A DNA stretch of 41,850 nt, taken from the IMG/VR virus record IMGVR_UViG_3300045988_136506. The stretch is one strand, 5' to 3'. Under the pieces are notes generated by a model. The model worked only from the letters and a program-made list of their open reading frames with translations, did no database searches and was not told the origin of the DNA. Below are positions 9,425 through 34,169 of the stretch, piece after piece (position 1 is the stretch's first letter; every line of letters begins with the position of its first letter). The translations under genes were made by a program, and so were the position numbers. Source of the stretch: a virus.

Positions 9425-9814
9425 ATGTGGAAAAATATTCAAATCAACAAACAAAATATTAAAGCTGAAACTATGAAAGCAGTATTAATCCAGATGCCAC
9501 ACAATTCAAATTACGATGGTTTCAGTTTCTGGCATCCTTCAAAATTAGTAAGAACTGGCTACAATTCAAACGCTTTAAGTATTGGTTATAATGATGATTT
9601 TACTTTTAAATTAATTAAGCATGGTAAAGGTAAATATAATTCAAGAGATATTATAGCTGAAGAAGTAATAGGTGTTGAAGAATTTGAAGAAGCTTTTGGG
9701 GCAATGAATGAAAATATTACTGCCCCTCATACAAAAAATATTTATGAAACACACAAACCAGCTCCACTGGAAGTAAAAGAAGTTTCAGTATTGGATGAAT
9801 TGAAAGATGAATAA
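9425..9814 (+). CDS. hypothetical protein
   Basis: 129-aa ORF with an RBS GGAG 8 nt upstream. Its stop overlaps the start of the next gene (ATGAATAA). Confidence 0.5.
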   Translation: MWKNIQINKQNIKAETMKAVLIQMPHNSNYDGFSFWHPSKLVRTGYNSNALSIGYNDDFTFKLIKHGKGKYNSRDIIAEEVIGVEEFEEAFGAMNENITAPHTKNIYETHKPAPLEVKEVSVLDELKDE

Positions 9815-11021: not shown

Positions 11022-12277
11022 ATAAAAATGTATATCAGCTAGCACTAGAACGCATAGCTTATTTATTTAATGAGTTTGATAATGTTCTAGTGGCTTTTAG
11101 TGGTGGAAAAGATAGTACTGTATGTCTTGAGTTATGCTATGACTATGCTAAGGAAAACGGCTTATTAAACAAGTTGTCAATGTATCACTTAGATTATGAA
11201 GCTCAATACCAAATGACTACCGATTTTGTAGATGAAACGTTCAAGCGCTATTCTGATATTGAGAGATATTGGCTTTGTCTTCCAATTAAAGCTCAATGCT
11301 GTACTAGTATGACATCTGGGTATTGGATTCCATGGGAAGAATCTAAAAGAGCTATTTGGGTTAGAAAAATGCCTACATATGATTACGTTATTAATCAGCA
11401 TAATTGCCAGTTTGATTACCACGGCTTTGATTATGATGTTCAAGATAGATTTTGCGATTGGTTTAAATCAAAACACGGTAAAACAGCTGTTGTAATAGGA
11501 ATAAGAACGGATGAATCGTTAAACCGATTTAGAGCAATAGCGAGTGATCACGCTGTTAAATATAAGGGTAAATCATGGATTAATGGAAACAAGGCTTATC
11601 CAATTTATGATTGGCATGTTCAAGATGATTGGATATATTTTGGAAAGTTTGCTAAGCGATACAATAAGTTATATGATTTGTACTATCAATCTGGGCTAAG
11701 CGTTGACCAAATGAGAGTCGCAAGTCCATTCAATGATTGTGCATCAAACACCTTAAAACTCTATAAAGTTATTGATCCAAATAACTGGGGAAAGATGATT
11801 GGTAGAGTTAACGGTGTTAATTTTACCGCTATTTATGGTGGAACTACTGCTATGGGATGGAATAAAATAACTAAACCTAAAGATTTTACATGGAAGCAGT
11901 ATTGTTATTTTTTGCTCAATACTTTGGATGAAAAAACAAAGCAACATTACTTAAACAAATTAAACACTTCAATTAAGTTTTGGAAAGATAAAGGCGGTTG
12001 TTTAAGCGATGAAACAATTAAAGAATTGCAAAAAGACAACATTAATTATATAGATAAAGGCTATACCAGTAATTATAGTACCAATAAAAAAGTAATTGCA
12101 TTTAATGACTATTTAGATGATACAAATGTAACCAATTTTAAAGAATTACCAACATATAAACGTATGTGTATTTGTATAATTAAAAATGACTATTATTGTA
12201 AATATATGGGCTTTAGCCAAACCAAAAATGAAATAGAGAAAAGAAAGAGAGCTATAGAAAAATATGCAAAATTATAA
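11003..12277 (+). CDS. PAPS-reductase-family (PP-loop ATP pyrophosphatase) protein, IbrA-like
   Basis: PP-loop AFSGGKDSTVCLEL near the N-terminus. The 424 aa size with a long C-terminal extension matches IbrA-type proteins. It is translationally coupled to the downstream ParB-like gene. Confidence 0.7.
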   Translation: MAKNYLDKNVYQLALERIAYLFNEFDNVLVAFSGGKDSTVCLELCYDYAKENGLLNKLSMYHLDYEAQYQMTTDFVDETFKRYSDIERYWLCLPIKAQCCTSMTSGYWIPWEESKRAIWVRKMPTYDYVINQHNCQFDYHGFDYDVQDRFCDWFKSKHGKTAVVIGIRTDESLNRFRAIASDHAVKYKGKSWINGNKAYPIYDWHVQDDWIYFGKFAKRYNKLYDLYYQSGLSVDQMRVASPFNDCASNTLKLYKVIDPNNWGKMIGRVNGVNFTAIYGGTTAMGWNKITKPKDFTWKQYCYFLLNTLDEKTKQHYLNKLNTSIKFWKDKGGCLSDETIKELQKDNINYIDKGYTSNYSTNKKVIAFNDYLDDTNVTNFKELPTYKRMCICIIKNDYYCKYMGFSQTKNEIEKRKRAIEKYAKL

Positions 12278-12776
12278 ATCACCAGTTTACAATGTTAAAG
12301 CTGTACCAATAGAAAAGATACAAGCAAACGCTTATAACCCTAATCATGTTGCCGTGCCAGAAATGAAGCTTCTTTATAAGTCAATTCTTGAAGATGGATA
12401 TACTATGCCAATAGTGTGTTATTATCTTAAAGATCAAGATAAATATGAAATTGTAGATGGATTCCATAGATATAGAACAATGCTGGAACACAAGGATATT
12501 TACGAACGTGAAAATGGATGTCTTCCAGTAGTTGTAATTGATAAAGATTTATCCAATAGAATGGCTTCAACCATCCGCCATAATAGAGCTAGAGGTTCAC
12601 ATTCGATTGAATTAATGACTAATATAGTTGCTGATTTAGTTAAGAGTGGAATGTCGGATGCATGGATTATGAAAAATATAGGTATGGATGCTGAAGAACT
12701 TCTTAGACTTAAGCAAATAAGCGGACTTGCTGAGTTATTCAAGGATAAAGAGTTCAGTAAAGGTTGGGAAGAATAG
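12264..12776 (+). CDS. ParB/Srx-fold nuclease-domain protein, IbrB-like
   Basis: ParB N-domain motif VDGFHRYRT and the Arg-rich segment HNRARGSHS. The 170-aa ORF overlaps the PAPS-reductase gene by 14 nt. Confidence 0.7.
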   Translation: MQNYKSPVYNVKAVPIEKIQANAYNPNHVAVPEMKLLYKSILEDGYTMPIVCYYLKDQDKYEIVDGFHRYRTMLEHKDIYERENGCLPVVVIDKDLSNRMASTIRHNRARGSHSIELMTNIVADLVKSGMSDAWIMKNIGMDAEELLRLKQISGLAELFKDKEFSKGWEE

Positions 12777-13014: not shown

Positions 13015-13326
13015 TTATTTTTTGGATTCAATCTTTTTAGTTTGTTTTTTAGCGTATTCTTCAATTTTATCGAAAGCCTTTTGAACTAACTTTTCTATAA
13101 AGTCTTTTGTAAAAATCATTTTATATGGAAGTGGTACTAATGAATAGAGATCATCAACTACACGCTTCATCTTCTCTTTACCATCGACTCCAGCTATTTC
13201 AGCATCATTAATGCTTCCACTAACACTGGATTCCAATTTTGCTTTAATCTTGAAGTAGTATGTTAGTAAAGTAATTATGATTCCTAATACGACTAATACA
13301 ATATTGATAATTTCATTTATATTCAT
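13015..13326 (-). CDS. holin-like protein with an N-terminal transmembrane helix and a charged C-terminal tail
   Basis: TM segment IINIVLVVLGIIITLLTYYF followed by a Lys/Glu-rich tail. It is the last gene of the late operon. Confidence 0.45.
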   Translation of the reverse strand: MNINEIINIVLVVLGIIITLLTYYFKIKAKLESSVSGSINDAEIAGVDGKEKMKRVVDDLYSLVPLPYKMIFTKDFIEKLVQKAFDKIEEYAKKQTKKIESKK

Positions 13327-13327
13327 T

Positions 13328-13639
13328 TTATTTTATCCCCAATCTGCTTAATAAATATCCTAATAATGCACCAACTAGTGTTGTGATAATTAAGCTTACT
13401 ATCTGTTCCCAACGCCTAGCTGGTTTAGCTTCTAATTCAGCAAGTCTCTTACCTTGCTCTTCTTGTTTTTCATTCATGGTGTTCATATTAATAGCTAATT
13501 CTTTAACACTCATAGCTAAGTTATTAATAGCTTTTGACTGCTCTTCAACTTTATCCATTCGCCTTTTAAGTGACTTAATATTCTCATCATGGTTTGTTAG
13601 TTCTTTTGTAATTTTAATTTCATTTATATTATTTTCCAT
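13328..13639 (-). CDS. XhlA-like (haemolysin XhlA family) lysis-associated membrane protein
   Basis: N-terminal coiled coil (IKSLKRRMDKVEEQSKAINNL...) and a single C-terminal TM helix (IVSLIITTLVGALLGYLLSRLGIK). This is the XhlA architecture of PBSX-type lysis modules. Confidence 0.5.
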   Translation of the reverse strand: MENNINEIKITKELTNHDENIKSLKRRMDKVEEQSKAINNLAMSVKELAINMNTMNEKQEEQGKRLAELEAKPARRWEQIVSLIITTLVGALLGYLLSRLGIK

Positions 13640-13648: not shown

Positions 13649-14320
13649 CTAAGTTGTGATTGTGATTAATTCAAGCGGATAATTTGAGAAATAGCCCCAT
13701 TCATTGGTTGCGACTTGATCAGCGACTGCTCTAAAGTATTCACTATCAGAAGTGCCTATTGTGCCTTGATTTGGAAATGCGTTTAAAACTAACTTGATAC
13801 TATTCCCACTTATATTATAAGATGCTCTAAATGTTTTTGCACTACCATTTGTGTCAATTACTCCTGTTTGTGATTCATCATTATATCTGTTAAATACATG
13901 GCTTGAAACAATACACATGTTATTAGGAAGTTTAGTGATACTGAAGTAACCATCATTCGTATTACTAAAACACACTAGAGATGTGAATGTAACACCTACA
14001 CTACCCATAGCTAAAGTAACTTCGTTTGGATAAACTAGTTCTCCATCATCATTTTCAGTTGCTTCAGGAACGGTAACATTAAATCCACTAAAACTACCAG
14101 CTGTTATAGCTTCACTAATTACTGGTGTATCACCACTACTACTCCCAGTTGGAATAGATAATATACACTGTGCTAAATTAGCTGAATTCTTATTTGTTGG
14201 TATAGATGTTGCCTTTTTAGTAATACAAGCGTTGTAAGCATTGCTAATATTGGATTTAAGCCCATTTATAGCCGTTTCTAGGCTTGTTAAATCAAAAGCC
14301 ATATATTTACACTCCCCCAA
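13649..14320 (-). CDS. tail-tip / receptor-binding-associated structural protein (hypothetical)
   Basis: 223-aa Ser/Thr/Asn-rich ORF overlapping the Tal-like gene by 14 nt. It shows no lysin motifs. Confidence 0.4.
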   Translation of the reverse strand: MGECKYMAFDLTSLETAINGLKSNISNAYNACITKKATSIPTNKNSANLAQCILSIPTGSSSGDTPVISEAITAGSFSGFNVTVPEATENDDGELVYPNEVTLAMGSVGVTFTSLVCFSNTNDGYFSITKLPNNMCIVSSHVFNRYNDESQTGVIDTNGSAKTFRASYNISGNSIKLVLNAFPNQGTIGTSDSEYFRAVADQVATNEWGYFSNYPLELITITT

Positions 14321-15734
14321 TCAAATTAGCCAGTCTATCAAACGCATTTTGAACATCAGCTTTTAAAGCGTATTTACTTAAATCAGTATCACTACCAGTA
14401 CCTTTTTGGCGGTTAAAGAAGTCTTTAGTCTTATTGTCAAAGTCATTATTTTTTACATAATCTTTTAACTTATTATCATAATCTTTAAACTCATTGTCAT
14501 AATCCTTAAAGTTATTATTATAATCGTTAAACTTTTTATCATAATCATTGAAAGTTTTTTTAGTTTCATCAATCTTTTTAGAAGCTGAACTATTAATATC
14601 TATTGATATTCTTTCTTCATCACCAAGTACAATAGTAGTTTTATCTGGTTGATTTATATTAATTGTCATTTTTTGGACTATCATATAATTATCATCCAGC
14701 TTGTGAACTAAACTATATACTTTTACTTTTTGTCCTACTCGGAATGATTCGATATTAACATCTAACAGGTGTAAATCAAAAGCGTTTAATTCTATGTTTT
14801 TGGCTAACTTTTTATAGTAGTTAAGCTGTTCTTTAGCGTTTTTAACTAATTGTTGTGTGTCTTTTTCGACTCCATCCCACACTAGTACTTTAAATATCTT
14901 ACCGTATGTTTGAACTGCTTTTTCATCGTAGATATAATCAGTACCTTTTTCATGCTTGATAGTTCCATCAGTAAAATCTTCAACATCCGTAATATCTAAC
15001 TTATACTCGACTTTTTCTTCATCCTTACCATCAGTTTTAGTTGTTGCACCTAAAGGAATAATAGCTGTGGCTATTTCTTCACCTTTAATAGTTCTAGTTA
15101 AAGTTAATAAGTTTTTACCAAATTGAATTATTTGATTATTGACTGGTAATTGTTTAGAAGTAAGATAATCCAAGTATTTAATATTGTTGTGAATTCTAGG
15201 TATTAAATAAGTGTGATTAAAAGTATTTATCAAATCTTCATTTAAAGTTGTTAAAGTATCATCATAAGAAGATATCTTATAAAATGTGGCGGAAGAATCG
15301 ACTTCAGTAACGTTACCTACACTGAACTGCTTATATTGATCTACTTGTGAATTGTGGATGTTAATAACATCAGTCAAGTAGTCTTTAATTTTAGTATCAC
15401 CTTTTAATGAATATGATTTGGCTCTTTGAACTGAGTCTAACAAGTATCCCAGCATACCTTCACAAGAAATAGTTTTAAAATTATAAATATCAGTTTCATC
15501 ATTTAAAACTCTTCCGCAAAAGATTACATCACCATCTTGGACTAAATAAACTTCGGATAAATGCTTTTTTATATCACTAAAATATGGATGTGTTGGACTA
15601 ATTTTAAAGCTGAGTGAGCCAGTCTTATTAAGCTCTAGCTCACAAACAGCATTTGCAACTTTTAAGTTGTTACTTCTCGAATCGTGAATAATATATCTTT
15701 CACCATCGTGGTTATCCATAATTATTTGATACAT
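14307..15734 (-). CDS. tail-associated protein (Tal-like; siphovirus 'prophage tail endopeptidase' family position)
   Basis: 475-aa ORF immediately after Dit, with its start overlapping the Dit stop. The C-terminus carries the reiterated motif (K/N)DYD(K/N)(K/E)F: NDYDKKFNDYNNNFKDYDNEFKDYDNKLKDY. Confidence 0.55.
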   Translation of the reverse strand: MYQIIMDNHDGERYIIHDSRSNNLKVANAVCELELNKTGSLSFKISPTHPYFSDIKKHLSEVYLVQDGDVIFCGRVLNDETDIYNFKTISCEGMLGYLLDSVQRAKSYSLKGDTKIKDYLTDVINIHNSQVDQYKQFSVGNVTEVDSSATFYKISSYDDTLTTLNEDLINTFNHTYLIPRIHNNIKYLDYLTSKQLPVNNQIIQFGKNLLTLTRTIKGEEIATAIIPLGATTKTDGKDEEKVEYKLDITDVEDFTDGTIKHEKGTDYIYDEKAVQTYGKIFKVLVWDGVEKDTQQLVKNAKEQLNYYKKLAKNIELNAFDLHLLDVNIESFRVGQKVKVYSLVHKLDDNYMIVQKMTININQPDKTTIVLGDEERISIDINSSASKKIDETKKTFNDYDKKFNDYNNNFKDYDNEFKDYDNKLKDYVKNNDFDNKTKDFFNRQKGTGSDTDLSKYALKADVQNAFDRLANLIGGV

Positions 15735-16378
15735 TATAGTTCACCACCTTGGTAAATGATAGTTGCAATTCCATTACCATTAAAGTGCAAAATATTTACA
15801 CCTTCTTTGATAAATAAATCTGGAATCTCATTTTCTCGATTAACTTTTAAGTTTCTATTTTCACCGTTAACAACTATTGTCATATCATTAGTAACTTTAA
15901 TTATTGGATTAACAGTCATTCTTTTTCCGTGGATTTTAACATATGTATCACCATTAATGTTAGCATTACTAATACAATTAGCACTTGTATATTTAAACGG
16001 TTCACAATCACATTGGATAACTATTTTACCAATTCTCTTATCGCTAACCCATTGGTTGATTTGGCATCTTCCAACATAATAGTAACTTTCATCACTATCT
16101 AATATAATTTTTAATTTTTTACCATGAAGATAATTAGCTATTTCAGTAACTAAATCGTTAAATTCTTCATAGTCAGTTGTCATGGTAAATTCAAATTCAA
16201 GAATTCTATTATTAAATTTAATTTCACCACATAGAACTTCTGAAGTATCAATTACCCCATCAGCTCCTTCAATATCTACACTTGAAGTTTTAGGGGTTGG
16301 GAGTCCTAACGCTTTGTTAGTTAGGACTAATCCCCAGTCATCATATGTATGCTTAGTTCCAAAAGTTATTCCGTTCAT
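15734..16378 (-). CDS. distal tail protein (Dit)
   Basis: 214-aa ORF in the canonical position directly downstream of the tape measure gene. Confidence 0.55.
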   Translation of the reverse strand: MNGITFGTKHTYDDWGLVLTNKALGLPTPKTSSVDIEGADGVIDTSEVLCGEIKFNNRILEFEFTMTTDYEEFNDLVTEIANYLHGKKLKIILDSDESYYYVGRCQINQWVSDKRIGKIVIQCDCEPFKYTSANCISNANINGDTYVKIHGKRMTVNPIIKVTNDMTIVVNGENRNLKVNRENEIPDLFIKEGVNILHFNGNGIATIIYQGGEL

Positions 16379-20604: not shown

Positions 20605-20923
20605 CTAGTAAGTTTAATGTAATTTCTAAATGGTCGTGAATTTCCATTGGATCATCTATGAATTTTACTTCATAAATTCGGTTGTTAATTTTGAACCTAC
20701 ACTGAGTAATATCAAGATCTCGTACAGTAGAATCGTAATCAGAAATGAAAACGTGAGTTGAATCTTCCGTTTTTGTGTTATGAGAATAAGTAGAAGTGCC
20801 ACTTGATAAGTCTAACCAACCATTTAATACATATTTATCACTCCAAGTTAATACATTCTCGCCTAAATCATTGGTAGAAGCCGTTTTAACCTGGATAGTA
20901 GCCTTTAAATTACCACCAATCAT
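20585..20923 (-). CDS. head closure / head-tail adaptor protein
   Basis: 112-aa ORF. Confidence 0.45.
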   Translation of the reverse strand: MIGGNLKATIQVKTASTNDLGENVLTWSDKYVLNGWLDLSSGTSTYSHNTKTEDSTHVFISDYDSTVRDLDITQCRFKINNRIYEVKFIDDPMEIHDHLEITLNLLGVANAK

Positions 20924-21459
20924 AGGAAGTTCCTACTTGCCTTAGTGTATCTCTTAAGTCCTGTAAATAAATGAATTGGATACCCATTATATGAGTTTTG
21001 GTCATTTTGTGAGAAGTAACTTACTGAGTGTCTACCGATTGACTCACTTTGAATACCCATTTTAGAACCAAATTGTTCATCCCATTTAAGGATATTAATT
21101 ACCATTGATATAATATCTTGTGGATATTCAACTTTAGTAACAGTACATTCTTCACAATCGAATAAGTTCTTATCTAATTTAATTTTATTTGCTGTAATTT
21201 CTTCGATTAAATATAAACCATCATTAATTTTAGAATTAGTTATTTGAATGGTGTCCCCCACCTTTAAGTAAGGGGACATGCCAACCAAATAATTGTCAAC
21301 TGAGGGACATACTATTCTAATATTTCTATTTTGAAAATTATTATTTGTTTTACTTCTAATAAGTGCTTCTAAACCATCTAATTTAGCTTGGACTAACTCT
21401 GTTGAGGTGTCCGCAAATAAATGATAGTAATCAACCACTTCTTTAACACTAATAATCAT
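20920..21459 (-). CDS. head-tail connector protein (gp6/gp15-like)
   Basis: 179-aa ORF directly downstream of the MCP. Confidence 0.45.
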   Translation of the reverse strand: MIISVKEVVDYYHLFADTSTELVQAKLDGLEALIRSKTNNNFQNRNIRIVCPSVDNYLVGMSPYLKVGDTIQITNSKINDGLYLIEEITANKIKLDKNLFDCEECTVTKVEYPQDIISMVINILKWDEQFGSKMGIQSESIGRHSVSYFSQNDQNSYNGYPIHLFTGLKRYTKASRNFL

Positions 21460-22495: not shown

Positions 22496-23116
22496 TTAAT
22501 TTTGTTTTGTTAATTCTTCGTATGCCTCTTGATTTTCATTGAATAACTTTAAGCGTTCTCGATAACTCATTTTTTTAAAATCATCCTTAGTAACGCCTTT
22601 ATTATCACTATCACTCGGCAACTTCATTTCTTTTACCTTTGACTGAACACTAGCGAATTGTGTCGGCAACTGAACTTTTAAATCATCCAATAACTCTTTA
22701 GTTCCTGTTAAATTACCTTTATCATCAAGTTTTAATTCAGTTCCCTTTTCTTTGATTTTGAATTTAACATAATCCACATCTTGAACATTAGCTTCTAATA
22801 ATACTCTATCTAAAGCTGATTCAAGTCTTTGTTCTTCATTGGTTTTCTTAAGATTAGCGATTTGAGTTTCATAGTCTTTAATCTTACCTTGTAATTCTTC
22901 ATTACCTTTATTACCTTTTTGCAATTCATTGATTAAAGCTTGAGACTTTGCTAATTCTTGTGCGTTTTGCTCCGATTCCAATTTAAGTTTGTTATATCTA
23001 ACATCCATGTTTTCCTCACTTGCAAGGTAAATCTTATTGGATTTCATTTCAGCTGAGATTTTAACAATCTGTTCATCAGTTAATCCTTGAGCCTTTAAAA
23101 CTTCTGTAAAATTCAT
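22496..23116 (-). CDS. scaffolding protein
   Basis: 206-aa protein that is highly charged and has coiled-coil character (KLKLESEQNAQELAKSQALINELQK...). It lies upstream of the MCP. Confidence 0.6.
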   Translation of the reverse strand: MNFTEVLKAQGLTDEQIVKISAEMKSNKIYLASEENMDVRYNKLKLESEQNAQELAKSQALINELQKGNKGNEELQGKIKDYETQIANLKKTNEEQRLESALDRVLLEANVQDVDYVKFKIKEKGTELKLDDKGNLTGTKELLDDLKVQLPTQFASVQSKVKEMKLPSDSDNKGVTKDDFKKMSYRERLKLFNENQEAYEELTKQN

Positions 23117-23231: not shown

Positions 23232-24602
23232 TCATTGTTTTGTTCCATTACCTTGTAACCAAGTAAGTAGATCCCCAGTAGGTGATGTAGCGAAGATAAC
23301 TGTGCGGTAAGCTTCATTTGTCCACGCATGGGAGTTAACTTCATATACATTCGTTGTTCCGTATACCAAATATGCAGCCATCGGACTAGAAAAATTATAG
23401 CTAAATTTGCTATACGAATTTCCATTTGACGTAAAGTTAATATCGTGTGACCAACTTTTAACTCCAAAGGTTAAGTCTGCATTCAACACCCAAGTTTCGC
23501 CTGTACTTGGTTCTTCACTGCTTGATTTTTCAAACACAACTCCACCATCCAAATAAAACTTACTTACTTCATTTCCGTTATAAATAACCTTTTTAACATT
23601 GTTATAAGTAACTCCAAAGAGTGAAATGTTATAAATAGTTTTGCCAGTGTCTATTGCTAATTTTAGATATTTACCATTAGCAAAATCTAAATCGGTTAAG
23701 TTATATTTAGATTTATTTTCATCATCAATTAAAGTGATGAATTCTTCTTGAGTAACTAGCGTATCACTATCACTTGCATAATCTTCATAATTAAATGTTG
23801 CACCATTCCATATTTTTCTTGAATTATTGTTTGTAAAGCTAGATGTTTCAGTTAAATATTTAGAGCAACTAGTACAAGTAGTTTTACTTGCTCCACTTAT
23901 TGATACAGCACTAGCACAATAATTATGTGTACTGCTATAAATATGAGGGCAAAATCCACCAATATTGAAATATTGCTCACCACTTTTTTCTTGTACTGCA
24001 ATAGTACCAAAAGCAAAGCATCTGTATAATTTAGTGTATCTTGAATAACCAATAAATCCACCAACATATATACTTCTACTAGAACCAGTTATATTAATAT
24101 TTACATTACTTATACAGTCTTTAAATGTCATATAGTTGGAGTCACCATAGCACGAACCTATAAAGCCACCAACACCTCTAAAAGCATATTGAGTGTATAA
24201 GTAGTTATGTGTAACATTTATAGTTCCTTGAACAGATACATTTTCAATTTGTGGTGCTTTATAATAAACTCCACCAGCTAAAATACCAGTACAGTTATTA
24301 TAACCAGTTGAATTAATAGTTGCATTTTCAAATACTAGATTTTTAATAGTACAATCACCTAACATTCTAAAGAATCCAACCAAGTTATTATCATAAGTAG
24401 AATTAATAGTAATAGTCATATTTTTAATTTTGTGACCATTACCATTAAGAGTTCCATTAAAACTTACATTAACATCTTCTGGTGTTCCAATAGGTGTCCA
24501 TTTTTCTAAGCTTGATAAGTCAATATCACAACCTAACTCATAATCGCCTGTTAAATCGTTTTGGATTGCTTGTAAGCCTTCAACTGTTGTAATAGTTATC
24601 AT
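23232..24602 (-). CDS. right-handed beta-helix (pectate-lyase-like) protein; putative virion-associated adhesin or glycan-degrading protein
   Basis: N-terminal signature LQAIQNDLTGDYELGCDIDLSSLEKWTPIGT...FNGTLNGNGHKIKNMTI, followed by N/T/G-rich repeats. The 456-aa ORF overlaps the upstream gene by 4 nt. Confidence 0.5.
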   Translation of the reverse strand: MITITTVEGLQAIQNDLTGDYELGCDIDLSSLEKWTPIGTPEDVNVSFNGTLNGNGHKIKNMTITINSTYDNNLVGFFRMLGDCTIKNLVFENATINSTGYNNCTGILAGGVYYKAPQIENVSVQGTINVTHNYLYTQYAFRGVGGFIGSCYGDSNYMTFKDCISNVNINITGSSRSIYVGGFIGYSRYTKLYRCFAFGTIAVQEKSGEQYFNIGGFCPHIYSSTHNYCASAVSISGASKTTCTSCSKYLTETSSFTNNNSRKIWNGATFNYEDYASDSDTLVTQEEFITLIDDENKSKYNLTDLDFANGKYLKLAIDTGKTIYNISLFGVTYNNVKKVIYNGNEVSKFYLDGGVVFEKSSSEEPSTGETWVLNADLTFGVKSWSHDINFTSNGNSYSKFSYNFSSPMAAYLVYGTTNVYEVNSHAWTNEAYRTVIFATSPTGDLLTWLQGNGTKQ

Positions 24603-25726
24603 GAGGATGCCTCACTTGTTGTAATAGTTAATGTTCCAGTAGTGGAATCAAAAGTTACGGTTGGGGTAATAGCTTCATAAGTACCAATTACGCCACCTAT
24701 ATCAATGTCTTTTTTAATGTTTCCAGGCGTTAAAGTGGATGGTTTAGTAATAGTTACTTGGGATAGTGTTTTACCGCTTGTAGGGGTGATTACTTGATTA
24801 CCAGTAGCCATTGATAAATCAACTGTCTTAGTCTCTTCAACTGGAGCTGAAGCACCTTCATATGTTCCAGTAACTCCACCGATATTTACACCACTTTTAA
24901 CATTTCCAGCGGTTAAATTTTCAAGCCCTTGTAATGTGTAATTACTACCAGCAAATATAATAGTGTTTCCATCATTTTGTAAGTCAATAACGTTGTCTTG
25001 GTCGACAATTATTCTAGGCTTATTAATTGGTGTGTTAATATAAATACTTGCATATTGTGCAGGTAAACCATCTTCAAGTTGTATTTGGTTTGTGGTTAAA
25101 GTTAAGCCAGTTAGGTTTATATAACTATTTGGAATAGCTCCAACAGTTACTTTAGATAAGTATTTTCCGCTATCAGGCGTGATTTCTTGAATTGAAGTAC
25201 TTGGGGTTGCGGTTTTTTCTTGAGTTTGTGGGGTTTCACATACATGAGTACCAGTTAATTTAGTACCGTTTACATATGCTGTTTTACCACTCAATATGTC
25301 CGATTGTGTAGCATCTGCATCAGAAGTATCAACTTTAGATCCACCTGAGCCACCACTTCCATTAGAGTTGAGTGTATTTTTTATACTTGTAAGTTTTGTG
25401 TTGGTTTGTTCTAAAGTTTCATTGTTATTTTGTAAAGCTGTGTTTATTTCTACTTTACTGGTAGTGATTGTTATAGTATCAGAAAAGCTTGAACTTTGTG
25501 AAAAAGTATTATCTGTAAAAGTGATTTCTCCTGAAGTTGTTGAAACTACGGAATTTACAACATATCCAGGTTTTAAAGTTATAGTAAAAATAGTGTTGCC
25601 TTGAATAACTTGGATGCTTTGTCCACTTTCAGTCCAATCAGAAACTATTCCGCTTCCGTTATACGAACCTTGGACTTTTTGTACACCATTATCAAAATTA
25701 ATAGTTACTTGTCTTGTTACTGGCAT
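24599..25726 (-). CDS. fibre-like protein with a GSGGSGGS linker and 2-3 internal ~55-70-aa repeats
   Basis: The repeats read ITP(D/T)SGK(Y/T)LS(K/Q)VT...N(I/V)...(I/G)GGV(T/I)GTYE(G/A). The protein is 375 aa and Thr/Ser-rich. Confidence 0.45.
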   Translation of the reverse strand: MPVTRQVTINFDNGVQKVQGSYNGSGIVSDWTESGQSIQVIQGNTIFTITLKPGYVVNSVVSTTSGEITFTDNTFSQSSSFSDTITITTSKVEINTALQNNNETLEQTNTKLTSIKNTLNSNGSGGSGGSKVDTSDADATQSDILSGKTAYVNGTKLTGTHVCETPQTQEKTATPSTSIQEITPDSGKYLSKVTVGAIPNSYINLTGLTLTTNQIQLEDGLPAQYASIYINTPINKPRIIVDQDNVIDLQNDGNTIIFAGSNYTLQGLENLTAGNVKSGVNIGGVTGTYEGASAPVEETKTVDLSMATGNQVITPTSGKTLSQVTITKPSTLTPGNIKKDIDIGGVIGTYEAITPTVTFDSTTGTLTITTSEASS

Positions 25727-25779
25727 ATGTCTTTATCCTTTCATTAATAATTTATACCCATTTTATTATTTTTTCAATA

Positions 25780-27153
25780 TTAAGTTGTCTCAGAAACAAC
25801 TAGTGTTTCTCCAGTATTAACATTTACCCAATTGCTATCGCCTTCATCATACAAATAAGCTTCTGCAAATTGTGCAACATTATTGCTATCTCCTATGTAA
25901 ACTCCTTTAACTGGAATAGTAGCTTGATTACTAATCAATTCAAACGAATAATTATTATTACCATGAGAATAAATTAATACATTATTATTGTCTAAAGTCA
26001 TTCCACTAGGTGTAAACATATATATTGCGGTACTATATGTTGAACTAGCGCTTTTACCACCAAATATATAAATCTTTCCATTCACTTCACTACAGCATGC
26101 TTGTGATAATCTAGTAGGTAATCTTATATTTAAAGTAGTAAGTGTTTCAGTTGTTGGGTCAAATTTATAAATAATATTTTCATATGAAGCATAACTATAT
26201 CCACCAAATATATAAATCTTTCCATTCACTTCACTACAGCATGCTTCACTTAAGCCATTACTCGCAGGAATTGTTGCACTTAAAGTCGTGATTGCCTCAG
26301 TTGAGGTGTCAAACTTTTGTATAATTTTACCTTGAGTTTTATAGTTAGCACTACTTTCTCCGCCAAATATATAAATATATTTGCCTGATCTCGCATAACA
26401 TGAATTACTCGAACCATATTGCAATGTTGCGCTTAAAGTTGTGAGCGTTTCGGTTGTTGTATCAAATTTATAAATAGTTTTATAGTAAGTACTACCCAAA
26501 TAACCACCAAATATATAAATATTATTTCCAAATTTAGCACACTTTGGTCTATATATATTAGGAAAACTTACTGTTATTTCTTCAATTGTTTCAGTTGTTA
26601 TATTAAATTTGTGAATTGGATTATTAGGTGGGAATATATAAATATAATTTCCTACTAACGCACAAGCTCCAGAAGCGCTTGTGCTTGTGGCTATTGTGCT
26701 TAAAGTTTTGGTTATAGTATTAAATTTATAAATTATACTACCAACTGGTATATAAATATAATTACCAGCTGTAACGCAACTTAAGTTACTTAATTGAGGC
26801 ATTACTTGAGTTAAAGTTTCAATAGCTTCATTAACAGAACCATTTAACTCACTATCTACTTTAAATGTTAATTCAGTACTATCATTTAAAATACATAATT
26901 TTTTATGGTTAGCTGTTAGAATATCATTTGCGTTGCTAGTAACAAGTATATTGTCTGTAATATTAGCACCAGTTGATAAATTCTCCACTAAAGTTTCAAT
27001 CTCTTCAACTAGCGCCTTATTTTGGTTAACTAAATCAGTGTTTGAACTAACTAAGCTTTCACTTACTGGATCAGCGCAATCGGCTGGTAATTCGATTAAT
27101 TTATTATTAAGAGTTATTAATTTTCCATCAACTGATAAATATCTTTTTGCCAT
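25780..27153 (-). CDS. Kelch-repeat beta-propeller protein
   Basis: About six ~50-aa repeats, each carrying G(K/N)(Y/I)IYIFGG...IYKFD..TETLTTL, which matches the Kelch motif. Total 457 aa. Confidence 0.65.
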   Translation of the reverse strand: MAKRYLSVDGKLITLNNKLIELPADCADPVSESLVSSNTDLVNQNKALVEEIETLVENLSTGANITDNILVTSNANDILTANHKKLCILNDSTELTFKVDSELNGSVNEAIETLTQVMPQLSNLSCVTAGNYIYIPVGSIIYKFNTITKTLSTIATSTSASGACALVGNYIYIFPPNNPIHKFNITTETIEEITVSFPNIYRPKCAKFGNNIYIFGGYLGSTYYKTIYKFDTTTETLTTLSATLQYGSSNSCYARSGKYIYIFGGESSANYKTQGKIIQKFDTSTEAITTLSATIPASNGLSEACCSEVNGKIYIFGGYSYASYENIIYKFDPTTETLTTLNIRLPTRLSQACCSEVNGKIYIFGGKSASSTYSTAIYMFTPSGMTLDNNNVLIYSHGNNNYSFELISNQATIPVKGVYIGDSNNVAQFAEAYLYDEGDSNWVNVNTGETLVVSETT

Positions 27154-27156
27154 ATG

Positions 27157-28191
27157 TTATACCTCATAAAATGGAATTAATAGTGAAACTATAATAACAT
27201 CATCCACATTTGTAGTTGGAATTGACAGTATATGTGTTTGAGTGTGATATGTTCCAGGATGTCCTGTTTCATCAAAATCCAAATTATGAAAAGTGAATAA
27301 TCCACTAGTAATTTCCTCAGCACTATTACGCTTATGATAGTAGTATAAACCTGATTTAGTAAGTGTCACATAATAGCATTCTGGTTCTTCTTCTGAGTCA
27401 AACGCACCAGTTAATACTGTGTTAATAGATTTTACTTTAGTAACATCTGCACTAGTTAATACTGTGTTAATAGATTTTACTTTAGTAACATCTGCACTAG
27501 TTAAATCTAAAGCTGGAATAACAGTATTATCAACTGCGGTTGTTTCAGCAATAGCAATTTGAACGCTATATGTTGCTCCATTAGTAAATGTGAAAACTAA
27601 ATTTCCGCTTTGGTCTTTACTTAATCCAGTGATAACTGCACCTTCAACTATAAGTCTCCACTTAGTTGTATCAGTTGGTAATATTCCAGTAATTTCAGCA
27701 TCACTAATACACATGTAAGAGGAATAGTTGTAATATACAATGTTAGGTCTTTTATAAGCCTTTGTTGAGTCATAATCACTTACATAAAGTCCATTTAAAA
27801 TAGCTTTAGCTTGAAGCTCTATTTCTTCAATTTCGGCTATTTCTTCATTACTTGGTTGAGTGTAATTGGTCGGTTTTAATCTTGGAATAATTGGAATTGT
27901 AATAGATTTGATAGTTTTATAGGTTAAGCCAGTATTTGTATAGATATAGGCTAGAATATCGTATTTTTCACCTAGAAGTGTGTTAGGAATTGATACTTCA
28001 CAAGTTCCATCATTTTTAAGTATGCCTTGAACTGCTAAAGCTTCAATTGATTTCTTATTGCAAAAATGTACTTTTGGGCTAACAGCTTCAAAATCAATAC
28101 CGCTTATTACAAGTGTTTGGTATGAGTCCCATTGGTAGAGGTTCTCGGTTGTTAAATCGTTTATCGATTCATTAAATTCAGCTTTTATCAT
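27157..28191 (-). CDS. hypothetical protein translationally coupled to MuF; contains a perfect 15-aa tandem duplication
   Basis: 344-aa ORF overlapping the MuF gene by 14 nt. The peptide SADVTKVKSINTVLT occurs twice. Confidence 0.5.
   Translation of the reverse strand: MIKAEFNESINDLTTENLYQWDSYQTLVISGIDFEAVSPKVHFCNKKSIEALAVQGILKNDGTCEVSIPNTLLGEKYDILAYIYTNTGLTYKTIKSITIPIIPRLKPTNYTQPSNEEIAEIEEIELQAKAILNGLYVSDYDSTKAYKRPNIVYYNYSSYMCISDAEITGILPTDTTKWRLIVEGAVITGLSKDQSGNLVFTFTNGATYSVQIAIAETTAVDNTVIPALDLTSADVTKVKSINTVLTSADVTKVKSINTVLTGAFDSEEEPECYYVTLTKSGLYYYHKRNSAEEITSGLFTFHNLDFDETGHPGTYHTQTHILSIPTTNVDDVIIVSLLIPFYEV
27411..27500. repeat. perfect 45-bp x 2 tandem duplication inside CDS 27157..28191
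   Basis: 27411-27455 is identical to 27456-27500 (ttaatactgtgttaatagattttactttagtaacatctgcactag). A degenerate partial third copy follows. Confidence 0.85.
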
Positions 28192-29113
28192 TTGTTACCC
28201 TCCAAAATTCTCTTTTGAATTCTTCATAGTCTTCTTTATTTTTAAATTCCATAAGTTCATTATCTTCACCATTCATTTTAGTGAATGATTTATCAAGATT
28301 CCATTTTGCTCTTTGGTTAACCACACAACGGCAATTAATATCTTCACTTGGAATTCCAAAACCACCTGGATACATGGCTTCATCACCATCAGCATTTTTA
28401 AATGGTTTATCAATATCAACTACTTGTCCATCTAAGAATCTGTGATTTGATCTAGTTTTTCCATCCAGTGTAGCGTCCCATTCTCTTACAATATTAGCGC
28501 CTTTTTTCTTGGCTTTAACTTGAGCGTTATAAGTTGATTCTTGGGATATTCTATGTCCCTCAGTTCTTGCAATTCTTAATGAGTTATTGTAAGTATTTTG
28601 GCTTGCGTTTCTAATTAGGCTTGCCATTTTTTCATAGGAATAACCTTGACTTATTCCACGTGATACCTCACTTCTAATTATACGCTTTAAATCCTTAATT
28701 TCAATACCTAAGCTATCGTATAAACTCTTGGATAACTTAGTATTTAATTGGACAGCTTTAACTACTTGTTCTTGGTCTATTGGGAATATTAAGGGTATGC
28801 CTTGATTTTGTAAGTCGTACAGTGTACCAATCCAAGATTCTTCATAGCATTTAGTAAGATATTCACTAATAGTAGTAAAGTTTTGAGTGTGTAATCGGTC
28901 TAAAATAGCTTCTATTTGCTTTTTTAGAGCTTTTTGATATTCCACTTGATAAATTATACTTTGTAAGTTTTGCGTGTCCGTACGTGCCTGTAAATCAACT
29001 ATTTTAACCATTATATCTTGAAGTGCTTTTTCATAAGTCTTAGTTATTTCTTCAATAAGTTCAGCTTCATTTTTAAGCACTTGCTTTTGAACTCTTTTTT
29101 GGTATCTATTCAT
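28178..29113 (-). CDS. head morphogenesis protein (MuF / SPP1 gp7 family)
   Basis: Conserved RIARTEGHR motif. The 311-aa ORF lies immediately downstream of the portal. Confidence 0.75.
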   Translation of the reverse strand: MNRYQKRVQKQVLKNEAELIEEITKTYEKALQDIMVKIVDLQARTDTQNLQSIIYQVEYQKALKKQIEAILDRLHTQNFTTISEYLTKCYEESWIGTLYDLQNQGIPLIFPIDQEQVVKAVQLNTKLSKSLYDSLGIEIKDLKRIIRSEVSRGISQGYSYEKMASLIRNASQNTYNNSLRIARTEGHRISQESTYNAQVKAKKKGANIVREWDATLDGKTRSNHRFLDGQVVDIDKPFKNADGDEAMYPGGFGIPSEDINCRCVVNQRAKWNLDKSFTKMNGEDNELMEFKNKEDYEEFKREFWRVTNDKS

Positions 29114-29115: not shown

Positions 29116-30537
29116 TTATTCACCACTTAACAAGTTTTGAGCTTCTTGGTTTAATTCAGCTTCACTTTTAGGTAGCTTATCTTTAATTTCTTCATAATCG
29201 ATATCGAGGACTTTACATATATTTTGTAAAATGGTCTCTTTATCAATTACACTAGCCACATTAAGTAAAGTATTAACCATTACAGCTTTAGTATCAGCTT
29301 CAACTTTTTCAATATTAGCGTTATCAGAAGCATTGGTCATTACTTCACGGTCAAACTCAAAGTAAACATCTTTTAATGAATAAGCTGTTTCATTACCAGT
29401 TGAGTTAATTTCATCAAGTACAACTTGAACTATCTTTGATAAGAACGCTCTTAATTGCTTTTCAAACTTATTACATTTTAGATCCAACAAAGCATACCTT
29501 GATTTAATTACAACATTAGTGATATTTCCATCACCCAATTGGCAACTATTGAAGCCCATACCAAATCTATAAATGTTTTTTTCATCAAGTTCAAGCTTTG
29601 CAACTCTTGCTTGATACGGAATATTAATTGTTTTAATGTCTACACTTCCACCTTCACCAACTCCAACTGTCTTTTTAGTTTTAAAGTTAGTAATTAATTC
29701 ATCTAAGTTATCACCTTGGAATCCACTTACAGCATAAATAGGGAAGTCAAAGTCTTGAATATTATTTGATAAGCCACATGCCATTAAATCGTAATCATCA
29801 ATTAAAGGCTTAATAGCGTATAAATCGGACATTTCAAACTTGTTATTTTTAAGCTTAAAGAATGGAATATAGCCTAGTGAAGCGCCATATTCTTCGCCTT
29901 TACGCTCATAAACAACATGCGGTCTAGGATTTAATTCAACGGATTCATCAATAGTGATTTTACCTTCGCCATCTTGGACATAATAGTAAACAAATTCTTT
30001 ATCCCATACTTGGATTTTAGTAATCTTTTCTTGGTTTTTGCCAATTCTTTCAATGTAATGATAGATAACATATTCGCAATTATCATCACTTTCAGTTTTT
30101 CTAACTTCAACAACGTTCATGGAATCAGCGCTTAAGAATTTAGTTCTACCTTCGCTTGATTTATAAGCGTACATATAACCAAATCCACGTGATTTACAAT
30201 CAGTACCAGTATTAACTAATTCGTTGATAAATTCAGCGTTAAAGTAATTATCTAATTCTTCTTGAAGCTCTGGAATTTTGGATTTAACAATCTTTTCACC
30301 ACTAAACATATATTGAATGCATTGATCAACAAGTTCAGTAAAGAATGGATGTGCAATTTTAATGTTGCTTCTATACTTATCTTCAACCAAATTACCATCA
30401 GCATCATAGTAAAACATTCTATAATTTCTTATATCATGAACTCCACGGTAATAGTCATCACCTTTTTTAGCTTTAGTTTTTACTTCTGAAGTTTTATCAT
30501 TAGTAATTAAAGTTTTAATTTCTTCTATTTTTAACAT
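29116..30537 (-). CDS. portal protein
   Basis: 473-aa ORF between TerL and MuF, with the size and position of an SPP1 gp6-type portal. Confidence 0.75.
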   Translation of the reverse strand: MLKIEEIKTLITNDKTSEVKTKAKKGDDYYRGVHDIRNYRMFYYDADGNLVEDKYRSNIKIAHPFFTELVDQCIQYMFSGEKIVKSKIPELQEELDNYFNAEFINELVNTGTDCKSRGFGYMYAYKSSEGRTKFLSADSMNVVEVRKTESDDNCEYVIYHYIERIGKNQEKITKIQVWDKEFVYYYVQDGEGKITIDESVELNPRPHVVYERKGEEYGASLGYIPFFKLKNNKFEMSDLYAIKPLIDDYDLMACGLSNNIQDFDFPIYAVSGFQGDNLDELITNFKTKKTVGVGEGGSVDIKTINIPYQARVAKLELDEKNIYRFGMGFNSCQLGDGNITNVVIKSRYALLDLKCNKFEKQLRAFLSKIVQVVLDEINSTGNETAYSLKDVYFEFDREVMTNASDNANIEKVEADTKAVMVNTLLNVASVIDKETILQNICKVLDIDYEEIKDKLPKSEAELNQEAQNLLSGE

Positions 30538-32493: not shown

Positions 32494-33297
32494 CTACCAT
32501 TTATTGCTTCCAGCTTTAATAGTTTTACTCATTGTTATAGCATTTCTACTTAAGATATTATAGTAACCCCCACCGCTAGTAATTACATTATACCCTTTTG
32601 CCATAGCATATATACTAACTGCTGATGATTGATCACATTTACGTAATGCTTTACCTAACTTTGAACCACTTCTCATTTCACTTAGCATACCACTAGTTGC
32701 TTTACTATAAGTAATTATCTTGGCATTGGAATTTAATTTAGCTCTAACAACAGCTGTTTTCTTAATATTACCTCTAGTATTACCATAAAGGTTTGATTCA
32801 CCATAATCATCGGCAAAATAAATACCTCTACCATAAACTGAACCACCACTATCAGATACTCTAGTAACTGAACCACGTTGAACTTGTGATGCGATTGTAT
32901 CAGCATCCCACCTCATTCTATTTGTGCTATCATTAACTGAATTGACTGTTCTGAATAGTTCAGTTCCATTCATTGTATCAAGTACATTGTCATCTACTAA
33001 TTGAGGTTTGTCGTTTAAGCCCAAATTATACGTAAATTTTTGGAAGTCATTATCAGCTAAGAATACTGGGGCATCTTGAGATGCTAAATTTGATATTGCA
33101 TCAGCTTTTTGGTCATCACTCATATCCATAAAATTATTATAGTTTGTGCTAAATGATTGAGCTTGTTGGGTTGTATCAACTTGTGGTTGGGTTTGTTGTA
33201 CCTGAGAATTTTGAGGATTAACTTTTTGTGTAGCTGCATTAACAGTTGATGCAGATGATCCAGCGGTTCTCTTTCCCCCACGTGATGATTTAGCCAT
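32494..33297 (-). CDS. ADP-ribosyltransferase-like protein (PARP-like GIYFA motif) sharing its N-terminus with the upstream ART
   Basis: N-terminus MAKSSRGGKR followed by a Q/S/T/N-rich linker. ELFRTV supplies an Arg; YGRGIYFADDYGE supplies a PARP/ART-like G-I-Y-F-A motif. 267 aa. Confidence 0.4.
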   Translation of the reverse strand: MAKSSRGGKRTAGSSASTVNAATQKVNPQNSQVQQTQPQVDTTQQAQSFSTNYNNFMDMSDDQKADAISNLASQDAPVFLADNDFQKFTYNLGLNDKPQLVDDNVLDTMNGTELFRTVNSVNDSTNRMRWDADTIASQVQRGSVTRVSDSGGSVYGRGIYFADDYGESNLYGNTRGNIKKTAVVRAKLNSNAKIITYSKATSGMLSEMRSGSKLGKALRKCDQSSAVSIYAMAKGYNVITSGGGYYNILSRNAITMSKTIKAGSNKW

Positions 33298-33410
33298 TAC
33301 TTACCACGCTTCACTTTCTTAGTACTAGGTTTTTTGGTAACTTTTATTCCAGTGTTACCATTCCACCTATCATAGTCTTTTGGACTTGATTTTGTTTTTG
33401 TGTTTGCCAT
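33297..33410 (-). CDS. 37-aa Lys-rich micro-ORF (MANTKTKSSPKDYDRWNGNTGIKVTKKPSTKKVKRGK)
   Basis: RBS GGGGTGA. The stop TAA overlaps the ATG of the downstream ART-like gene (TAATG). Confidence 0.35.
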   Translation of the reverse strand: MANTKTKSSPKDYDRWNGNTGIKVTKKPSTKKVKRGK

Positions 33411-33422
33411 ATTTATCACCCC

Positions 33423-34169
33423 TTAAAATGTTTCAACATCTAAAATAACTCTTGGTCTTGAGCCTTTATTTCTAGGTGTTGCATATGTTCCATCATAATG
33501 AATACCTGTAATTCTTAAATTAGTGCCTTTATTCATTACAATTTCACTTTGAGCTTTAGCCCCTAAAACAACTTTACTATTGCTAGAAGCTTTAATATTC
33601 ATCACCACTTCTCTACCACCACCTAAAGGTTGATTAGGCGCAAATGGTGATTTACTAGCGTTATATGAGGTACTCATATATGCTGTTGTTTTTAATTCAG
33701 TACCAATTAATTTTGATTGTAATTGTGAATCGCTTAATTTTGTATAATCGCTAATACCGCACTTTTGTAAAATATCATCATGACAGTATCTTACTAAGTT
33801 AGTATCTTTACCTAAATCGTGCATACCGTTTTGTAGATTATCATTAATCCACCTTTCAGTTGCATTTAAAGGTAATCCATTATCCAATTTGTAATTCATA
33901 GATTGTGAATATGAATAGCCTTGACTATCTACCGCATCTGATATGTACATTTTTTGAGCTGATACAAAGTCAGGGTCTTGATATGAATCAGCATTAGCAC
34001 TAATAATTGCTTGTGCATCATTATCATCCATATTTTGATATGATCTAGTTTGAGTTGTGTTTATATTACCAGTTTGTCTAGCTGGTGTATTAGATTGAGC
34101 TATTGAAGCCCCTCTTCCTGGGTTTGGTGCAACACCACCTCTTCTTCCACCTCTTGAACTTTTAGCCAT
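33423..34169 (-). CDS. R-S-E class ADP-ribosyltransferase (C3/iota-like motif spacing)
   Basis: N-terminus MAKSSRGGRR. Arg region LVRYCHD, STS motif YMSTSYN about 40 aa later, and Q-x-E (AQSEIVMN) about 40 aa after that. The spacing matches binary-toxin/C3 ARTs. 248 aa. Confidence 0.55.
   Translation of the reverse strand: MAKSSRGGRRGGVAPNPGRGASIAQSNTPARQTGNINTTQTRSYQNMDDNDAQAIISANADSYQDPDFVSAQKMYISDAVDSQGYSYSQSMNYKLDNGLPLNATERWINDNLQNGMHDLGKDTNLVRYCHDDILQKCGISDYTKLSDSQLQSKLIGTELKTTAYMSTSYNASKSPFAPNQPLGGGREVVMNIKASSNSKVVLGAKAQSEIVMNKGTNLRITGIHYDGTYATPRNKGSRPRVILDVETF

Follow-up and report, generated by a model that had tools for sequence, protein, structure and literature searches.

An exchangeable cassette of candidate host-binding fibre genes between the MuF and scaffold genes of a temperate siphophage

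The IMG/VR virus record IMGVR_UViG_3300045988_136506, a stretch of 41,850 nucleotides analysed at its full length and called the window in the following, carries a block of four large minus-strand open reading frames (ORFs), B1 to B4 (23232-28191; 344, 457, 375 and 456 aa), between the genes of its MuF minor head protein and its scaffold protein. A previous reading of the DNA made without database searches (the sequence-only reading) had taken this position to suggest capsid-displayed adhesins or a cargo delivered with MuF. Judged from domain content, models and relatives, the four proteins probably belong to the virion as host-binding fibres, and it is the location of the genes, not the kind of protein, that is unusual. 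We favour, tentatively and with a little less than even confidence, that B1-B4 form the exchangeable peripheral part of a host-adhesion device in a distal baseplate position, with genes displaced into the head module. This tail reading is preferred because the N-terminal domain of B1 (B1_N) is homologous to the N-terminus of a tail fibre protein encoded after Dit and Tal in a cultured phage, because B1_N genes follow Baseplate_J or Tal in other contigs, because the block evolves like receptor-binding proteins (RBPs) while the tail module holds no long RBP or fibre gene, and because B3-type stalks and the C-terminal module of B4 occur in regions read as tail-fibre regions of unrelated phages. 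That the phage simply encodes its receptor-binding proteins here was the case which the sequence-only reading had itself set against head display, and it is the case that our analysis matches.

B1 (27157..28191, minus strand, as the whole block) opens the cassette and is its proposed anchor protein, B2 (25780..27153) joins an N-terminal adaptor to a six-bladed Kelch propeller, B3 (24599..25726) comprises a CnaB/pilin-like N-domain, a helix, a GSGGSGGS linker, stalk repeats and the C-terminal tail TVTFDSTTGTLTITTSEASS, and B4 (23232..24602) has, by its Pfam matches, a Peptidase_M26_N/GLUG-type core followed by a C-terminal module. The slot is bordered upstream by the gene of a short MuF minor head protein (28178..29113, minus strand; 311 aa; Pfam Phage_Mu_F, E 3e-19; PHROG head and packaging families), 5' of which lies the SPP1-type portal gene (29116-30537), and downstream by the scaffold gene (22496..23116, minus strand; Pfam Phage_scaffold, E 4e-22; phrog_194), followed by the major capsid protein gene; ORF calls and flanking Pfam matches agree with the earlier description of four large genes between MuF and scaffold. 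The 14-nt overlap of the 344-aa first gene with MuF, also described before, was measured at the junction. B1 and B2 are 3 nt apart, B2 and B3 53 nt, B3 and B4 overlap by 4 nt, B4 and the scaffold gene are separated by 115 nt, and a GGAGG-like ribosome-binding site is found at every start of the block.

According to the ORF list and the Pfam and PHROG matches, all late genes lie on the minus strand, in the order TerS, TerL, SPP1-type portal, short MuF, B1-B4, scaffold, major capsid protein and connector proteins (one of them encoded at 20920-21459) on the head side, and major tail protein, chaperones, 703-aa tape measure, Dit, Tal, a 223-aa protein, an XhlA-like and a holin-like protein on the tail side. 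No minus-strand terminator was found inside the block, and promoter-like sites are fewer there than expected by chance (27 found against 35.8 expected from shuffled sequence), so that B1-B4 appear to belong to the late operon; the idea of a moron, or of a transcription unit of their own, was dropped for the same two reasons. As the structural genes stand in one late operon without internal terminator, gene order says little on the assembly pathway. This bears on the proposal that B1-B4 are fibres or decoration on the shell, with adhesins displayed over the head surface, which draws on the place of the block between MuF and scaffold, on the 14-nt overlap of B1 with the end of MuF and on the Ig-like domains of some capsid decoration proteins such as T4 Hoc. 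The specific fold match of B1 is an immunoglobulin (Ig)-like domain plus helix of BppU type, the homologues occupy tail-fibre positions, and neither sequence nor fold similarity of the block proteins to capsid decoration or head-fibre proteins was found; with the single late operon, the step from gene position to capsid display is not supported, and we regard such display as very improbable.

Searches with the block proteins returned no match of the region to GenBank phages at the DNA level, nothing useful when cultured phages were searched by tblastn with B1, B3 and B4, and no NCBIfam name. PDB sequence searches with B1, B3, B4 and the 223-aa protein, and profile searches of PDB sequences with the alignments A4 and A5, gave no significant match, and searches for related loci with the Kelch protein and with P0413 found nothing. 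Searching 1.84 billion representative proteins with a profile built from B1 residues 1-136 recovered a large family (at least 6525 clusters at 50% identity with E ≤ 1e-3; 2332 with E ≤ 1e-10), for which neither Pfam nor NCBIfam holds a model. Among the best 150 matches listed, the first ~130 residues are covered in all but one protein, and the proteins range from 92 to 1024 aa; nameable C-termini behind B1_N are GDSL lipase, Exo_endo_phos and F5_F8_type_C. A tblastn search with one B1_N member led to gp16, annotated as 'tail fiber protein', of the cultured Ruminococcus gnavus phage phiRg519T2, and hhalign of the B1_N profile against gp16 confirmed the relationship (probability 99.0%, E 2.9e-18, 115 columns). 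The gp16 gene stands after the tape measure, gp14 ('tail protein') and gp15, and before a chaperone, holins and an endolysin; from their size and order we read gp14 and gp15 as Dit and Tal.

A degenerate DNA scan of IMG/VR for the motif YQWDxxQxLxI gave 35 loci (L028-L062), a sample biased by the motif, and hmmsearch identified B1_N ORFs in all of them; neighbouring genes were labelled by Pfam and BLAST. Nine loci are tail-proximal and 11 head/packaging-proximal, and 11 were left unassigned. On the tail side, B1_N follows Baseplate_J, with or without a Mu Gp48-like gene, in three myophage-like contigs (L060, L062, L047), and it comes after Tal, after Tal plus a fibre, or three genes after the tape measure in six others (L040, L045, L050, L057, L053, L056). 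The B1 homologues of phiRg519T2, L040, L045, L050 and L057 lie directly downstream of Dit-Tal, whereas the B1 gene of the window follows MuF. On the head side, L061 and L043, which correspond to the contigs of L004 and L003, have B1_N after MuF; L044, L039 and L058 have it between TerL and portal; in L049, L055, L034, L052 and L051 it stands upstream of TerL (after an HNH gene in three of these five), and in L036 upstream of capsid genes. Two B1_N paralogues are present in three of the five upstream-of-TerL loci, in L049 with a Kelch protein between them. Within this sample, gene order shows both that B1_N heads bona fide tail or baseplate fibres and that a shift of B1_N cassettes into the head/packaging region is recurrent.

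Side-by-side B1_N paralogues, seen in L049, L055, L052 and L041, recall the pair FibU and FibL of phage 80alpha. In L044 (IMGVR_UViG_3300023485_000159), positions 926-1888 between TerL and an HK97-type portal encode a 252-aa B1_N protein and a 63-aa ORF which is XkdX-like by eye, with no NCBIfam match. Directly behind Tal of this locus (474 aa) stand two small hydrophobic ORFs and one of 230 aa, which by eye are holin-like and amidase-like, respectively; the displaced B1_N gene is therefore the only fibre candidate of L044.

B1 itself has no Pfam match at E ≤ 0.1 and none in NCBIfam or PDB sequences. An AlphaFold2 model from 42 homologues (mean pLDDT 81) shows an N-terminal beta-sandwich (residues 1-100), a helix (115-134), a small beta domain (137-210), a disordered linker and a C-terminal beta-sandwich (258-340). 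The N-terminal Ig-like sandwich and the helix after it together make up the anchor domain B1_N (residues 1-135; 27787..28191, minus strand), of BppU_N-like fold and superimposable on the N-domains of BppU, FibL and FibU. Among the fold matches of B1 were 80alpha FibU (6v8i_BN, score 10.6), 80alpha FibL (6v8i_BJ, 10.5), the baseplate protein gp18 of Phage NF5 (9m8o_P, 9.8), TP901-1 BppU (4v96_AA, 9.5) and the BppU N-domain of TP901-1 (3uh8_A, 8.9). A Foldseek comparison with viral models (BFVD) likewise returned the names BppU domain protein, baseplate component, tail fiber and tailspike, and no match named as a capsid or head protein.

The small beta domain (27562..27783, minus strand; modelled strands with pLDDT 80-93) overlaps a match to phrog_5073, 'tail fiber protein', at residues 138-182 (E 0.0095). 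Weak matches to CBM_5_12, a carbohydrate-binding module (CBM) family, occur in 12 of the 42 family members (best E 0.002), none of them in the B1 of the window; the search gives no position, and a CBM5/12-like match is tentatively placed in the middle domain from the motif YKRPNIVYY...TGILPTDTTKW. In the linker, of which residues 217-243 have pLDDT below 50, a 45-bp tandem duplication (27404..27504, minus strand; 2.2 copies; TRF score 195, 98% matches) adds 15 aa in frame, and relatives 94% identical to B1 are 329 aa long and lack exactly these 15 residues. The C-terminal sandwich (27172..27420, minus strand; pLDDT 88-92) is not conserved across the family and differs between the window and L004; we infer that it is the docking or binding end.

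Relatives of the window were gathered through MuF, Tal, B1 and B4, and the MuF-scaffold slot was occupied in every one examined. In the AT-rich sub-lineage to which the window belongs, it always starts with a B1 homologue, after which two to seven variable genes follow. In the window these are Kelch, B3 and B4; in the closest relative, one circular IMG/VR contig read as the loci L003 plus L013, a DUF285-type leucine-rich repeat (LRR) protein, a 98-aa ORF, a B3 variant (B3') and B4; in L004 a Kelch protein with an Ig-like-looking tail and a B3-like protein without B4; in L015 ORFs of 263, 428, 96 and 93 aa and then B4; in L019 ORFs of 70, 222 and 304 aa, a Kelch protein, ORFs of 49 and 168 aa and then B4; and in L020 a DUF285/LRR_5 protein and ORFs of 70 and 306 aa, again without B4. 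The sequence-only reading had called the block inserted and had named synteny as the way to recognise an indel: an occupied slot is what we find, a one-off indel is not, since the B1-led cassette is constant in the sub-lineage and every relative examined carries something in the slot. The view of the block as unique to this phage was dropped together with the indel, the cassette being lineage-wide and its interior variable.

The closest relative shows how fast this interior changes. Of 20 flanking structural and packaging proteins 19 are 84-97% identical, a PARP-like protein upstream of TerS is 78% identical, and Dit, Tal and the 223-aa protein reach 91-95%, against 69% for B1, 56% for B3 and 92% for B4; B2 is common to both phages only over its first 82 residues (48% identity), after which the relative has LRRs instead of the Kelch propeller. 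By this comparison the block is hypervariable relative to its flanks and evolves in the manner of RBPs. Conserved N-terminal adaptors with exchangeable distal domains are the look of assembled fibres and receptor-binding proteins.

In more distant relatives (MuF 40-51% identical) the slot contains a C-terminal extension of MuF (with Ntox50 in L007) and small hydrophobic ORFs, and in MT835521, L008, L010 and L012 a gene with an endolysin-type domain (GH25, Amidase_3 or PG_binding_1); in the Enterococcus phage phiFL4A, MuF is fused to VIP2 and two small genes come next. The slot therefore appears to be a general cargo hot-spot, holding toxins, lysis genes or adhesins depending on the lineage. 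The small hydrophobic slot ORFs of L001 and L005-L012 are holin-like, and for a lysis cassette with endolysins this is an unusual place. That relatives use the slot for MuF toxin extensions (Ntox50 in L007, VIP2 in phiFL4A) is also what can be said for B1-B4 as MuF-associated cargo, packaged in the head or delivered with MuF like polymorphic-toxin effectors. Pfam, PHROG and NCBIfam found no toxin or enzyme family above curated cut-offs in B1-B4 (mutarotase/epimerase matches of the Kelch region of B2 are far under threshold, as is a BgtA match of B1 with 16.9 bits against a cut-off of 315 bits), and the true MuF-toxin fusions of the relatives differ from the block, which instead combines extracellular-type binding modules with an anchor fold of external tail proteins. 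Four proteins of 344-457 aa with features of trimeric fibres are implausible as internal cargo, and the ADP-ribosyltransferase-like genes of the phage sit elsewhere, upstream of TerS. Delivery with MuF, the second proposal of the sequence-only reading, is therefore barely credible.

B2 was correctly recognised before as a six-bladed Kelch propeller: Kelch Pfam models score above their cut-offs (PF24681 158.5 bits, cut-off 50, E 2e-46; Kelch_6 83 bits; Kelch_1 69 bits), and the blade motif I-[YHQ]-[KM]-F-[NDT] recurs six times, at residues 141, 180, 227, 278, 328 and 377, with a spacing of 39-51. The propeller is preceded by the adaptor (residues 1-82; 26908..27153, minus strand) with the motif M-x-x-[KR]-Y-[LV]-x-x-[ND]-[GN]-K-L...K-L. 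A B2-type N-terminal motif is kept by the gene after B1 in all six variants examined; the B2 N-terminus is also present in L004, L015 and L020 and forms a free-standing 70-aa ORF in L019, while the C-terminal part is replaced in relatives by DUF285/LRR_5 or by Kelch plus an Ig-like region.

For B3, the GSGGSGGS linker and two GGV.GTYE repeats were found as described earlier. Its model is confident in the N-terminal part only, a CnaB/pilin-like domain (residues 1-91) with a helix (96-121), and the repeat region is of low confidence when modelled as a monomer. A second BppU_N domain was considered here and rejected, the confident N-domain matching generic CnaB/pilin folds. The repeat units are found in at least 1259 proteins, often alongside BspA-type LRR_5, and one protein with B3-type repeats adjoins XkdX in a fibre region. 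The C-terminal tail of B3 is present in three loci with B4 directly next to it and absent in two without B4, a co-occurrence in a small sample that is confounded by linkage.

B4 matches only Peptidase_M26_N (PF05342, E 2e-7) and GLUG (PF07581, E 6e-5) in Pfam, with no pectate-lyase or Beta_helix match, so that the right-handed, pectate-lyase-like beta-helix proposed before remains a putative fold. The core (about residues 1-350) has ~40 homologue clusters of 356-373 aa on phage-sized contigs, which cover only 77% of B4, and it occurs in most relatives without the C-terminal module (residues ~351-456, ~100 aa; 23235-23552, minus strand). This module is common to many otherwise unrelated proteins: dozens of proteins of 250-775 aa match only the last 20-25% of B4, at 40-89% identity, a distribution by which the last ~100 aa form a mobile module. 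One of these proteins, P0042, is encoded in an unrelated phage at the end of the run of large genes and just before the early genes, which we read as a tail-fibre position. Kelch, stalk repeats and a GLUG-type core, behind conserved N-terminal adaptors and with swapped distal parts, are in line with the adhesin- or fibre-like nature that had been assigned to these proteins.

The tail module of the window offers no long fibre or RBP gene after Dit and Tal. Its tail-tip genes (13649..16378, minus strand) encode a classical Dit (214 aa; 15734-16378; phrog_33), a short Tal (475 aa; phrog_3558), whose match covers only positions 10-435 of the 1047-position tail protein profile, and the 223-aa protein, without match in Pfam, PHROGs, NCBIfam or PDB. 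A distant relative has a 658-aa DUF859 and Gp53-like_C fibre after Tal instead, and the lysis genes in the MuF-scaffold slot. Behind the 223-aa protein of the window follow the XhlA-like (13328-13639, minus strand) and holin-like (13015-13326, minus strand) genes, which end against convergent plus-strand cargo genes; at the place of this lysis-gene end, L015 carries an Amidase_2+SH3_3 lysin.

No recognisable endolysin was found anywhere in the complete genome. Since distant relatives put holin and endolysin genes in the MuF-scaffold slot, B1-B4 might also act apart from the virion, in lysis or cell-wall degradation in place of the missing endolysin, or as a cell-surface factor of the lysogen. 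We consider this improbable: searches of Pfam, PHROG and NCBIfam revealed no muramidase, amidase or peptidase catalytic domain in B1-B4, and neither a muralytic domain in Pfam nor a signal peptide or transmembrane segment on reading the N-termini was evident. Moreover, L015 has a cassette from B1 to B4 as well as a normal Amidase_2 lysin, the conserved adaptor with swappable C-terminus is the pattern of assembled fibres, and the block is embedded in the late structural operon.

For the favoured host-adhesion device at the distal tail, the following assembly is proposed. B1, with its N-terminal Ig-like domain and helix of the BppU/FibL/FibU fold, would be the anchor and would oligomerise into a ring around the distal tail at the Dit/Tal hub, as BppU, FibL and FibU do, with the middle domain (tentatively CBM5/12-like) and the variable C-terminal sandwich facing outwards. 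B2 would attach, probably to B1, by its conserved N-terminal adaptor (~25-80 aa) and present the Kelch propeller as a glycan- or surface-binding head, whereas B3 may serve as a stalk with coiled coil and repeat units, its conserved C-terminal tail pairing with B4, which would bring the GLUG-type core and the mobile C-terminal binding module. The assembled device is expected to mediate reversible adsorption to cell-wall polysaccharides of a Clostridia host and could so take part in host range, and recombination would exchange the distal modules while the anchors remain.

Several observations weigh against the baseplate position. The fold link of B1 comes from a single-chain AlphaFold2 model with an overall pTM of 0.34, and no sequence match of B1 to Pfam BppU_N (PF10651), BppU_IgG or TP901-1 ORF48 (BppU) was found. 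BppU_N matched none of the 42 B1 family members, and hhalign of the B1 profiles A1 and A4 against ORF48 gave a probability of 0.1%, while in the control ORF48 itself matched BppU_N at 4e-41; as a link to BppU is undetectable at this level, membership in the Pfam BppU_N family is not claimed for B1. In the motif-scan sample, 11 loci have B1_N at head/packaging junctions against the nine next to tail genes, a pattern that attachment near the connector might explain. The true RBP could also be the conserved 223-aa protein encoded after Tal, and the block would then be accessory. Finally, a BppU-like fold does not fix the position in the virion, because such rings have also been predicted for the neck passage structure (NPS) (PMC10747895).

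In a different placement, B1_N would form an NPS-like ring at the portal-adaptor junction, as neck collar or whiskers, and B2-B4 would be accessory adhesins extending from the neck. NPS proteins are variable and dispensable, and in lactococcal phages generally their gene stands behind the baseplate genes. The NPS gene of TP901-1 lies there too, not in the head module, so that known NPS systems are no precedent for the head-module position. For the TP901-1 NPS, a 12-mer ring of the N-domains (residues 1-125) at the portal-adaptor interface has been predicted and likened to the BppU, FibU and FibL rings (PMC10747895). Carbohydrate-binding modules are described on NPS proteins (PMC6669499, PMC10747895), and the block too has variable binding modules; B1_N cassettes recur at the TerL/portal, upstream-of-TerL and MuF/scaffold junctions; the tail-tip proteins, the 223-aa candidate RBP among them, stay conserved and the block varies; and assembly from the head-completion side would explain why the genes lie beside portal and MuF. 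On the other hand, B1 shows no sequence similarity to the TP901-1 NPS protein ORF51 (hhalign probability 0.06%), no solved NPS structure exists for comparison, and B1_N genes also stand behind Baseplate_J in contigs of myophage type and behind Tal in siphophages, where one would usually read a baseplate fibre. A neck collar is in our view unlikely, although a serious competitor. Rather doubtful to the same degree is the suggestion that the head-proximal position is functional, with exchangeable adhesins (Kelch, LRR, CBM) built into a crown at the connector or neck in several phage lineages of gut Clostridia; if true, the crown would assemble with the head and not with the tail, and would allow reversible binding to capsule or gut glycans independent of a tail-tip RBP.

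The first 119 nt of the window are identical to the last 119 nt, indicating a complete circular (or terminally overlapping) genome of ~41.7 kb, and its GC content is ~31%. A tyrosine integrase at 7324-8436 marks the siphophage as temperate. A search for the host in species-representative genomes gave two short Clostridia metagenome-assembled genome contigs only. Between integrase and lysis genes lies a plus-strand cargo island (8798-12776) with an SNF2-type helicase (9807-11021), a PAPS_reduct+DUF3440 protein (11003-12277), a ParB-like protein (12264-12776) and two further ORFs of no assigned function, which looks like a DNA-modification or defence-type module. Just upstream of TerS, two ADP-ribosyltransferase (ART)-like genes occupy 32494-34169 on the minus strand, one matching ADPrib_exo_Tox (33423-34169; E 2.8e-5) and one PARP-like with a GRGIYFADD motif (32494-33297; E 1e-3, under the Pfam cut-off), preceded by a ParB_N+DUF4417 gene. 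The set is kept in L019 and L020 and at least partly in L015, whose locus begins inside the ART gene, and the ART-like genes may be the counterpart of the toxin domains fused to MuF in relatives.

RBPs of uncultured gut phages are usually predicted by synteny, after tape measure, Dit and Tal. Cassettes of the type described here would be missed by such prediction and by host-range engineering based on it, because they lie at head/packaging junctions, and a name for B1_N would help to find the fibre and RBP genes of gut viromes at any place in the genome. The layout of constant anchor, conserved 25-80-aa adaptor and exchangeable heads (Kelch, LRR or Ig) could guide phage retargeting against Clostridia.

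Among known systems, the baseplates of TP901-1 and Tuc2009 use BppU (ORF48) to anchor BppL receptor-binding trimers on Dit; in the window the genes lie between MuF and scaffold and not after Dit-Tal, and the distal modules are of Kelch, stalk-repeat and GLUG type instead of BppL. Identity to FibL (gp62), FibU (gp68) and the RBP of 80alpha/phi11 (PMC7048315) is only 11-14%. The 80alpha fibre genes are found downstream of Tal and those of the window in the head module; the 80alpha propeller is a platform inside the RBP and not of the Kelch family, and the block lacks a collagen-like segment. The domain key to S6 Fig of the 80alpha paper includes beta-propeller platform, coiled-coil, Ig-like and beta-helix among the compared RBPs and fibres (PMC7048315). 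The only cultured-phage protein found with a sequence-homologous N-domain is gp16 of phiRg519T2 (MT980838; PMC10072058), like the window phage a temperate siphophage of gut Clostridia. This gp16, which the phiRg519T2 paper does not mention (PMC10072058), is a single 681-aa protein in the canonical tail position, and the head module of its phage differs and has no MuF. The lactococcal NPS proteins (TP901-1 ORF51) resemble the block as elongated adhesins ending in carbohydrate-binding modules (PMC10747895; PMC6669499), but a single protein, with its gene at the end of the tail module, makes up the NPS, against a four-gene cassette in the window. MuF polymorphic-toxin modules (PMC3482391), in which MuF-toxin fusions are followed by immunity genes, occupy the same slot after the MuF domain, a slot that is hypervariable in relatives; the MuF of the window is short (311 aa, MuF domain only), and B1-B4 carry no toxin or immunity domains. 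Searches of the literature available to us turned up no phage described with RBP or baseplate genes between its MuF and scaffold genes, and no Kelch or BspA fibre reported from such a place. Of the components, the BppU-type anchor, the propeller and stalk modules and the carbohydrate-binding modules of siphophage virions belong to kinds already known. New are the location in the MuF-scaffold slot, the repeated displacement of such cassettes in gut phages, the large extent of an anchor family that lacks annotation, and the module set of Kelch, DUF285/LRR and GLUG-type core.

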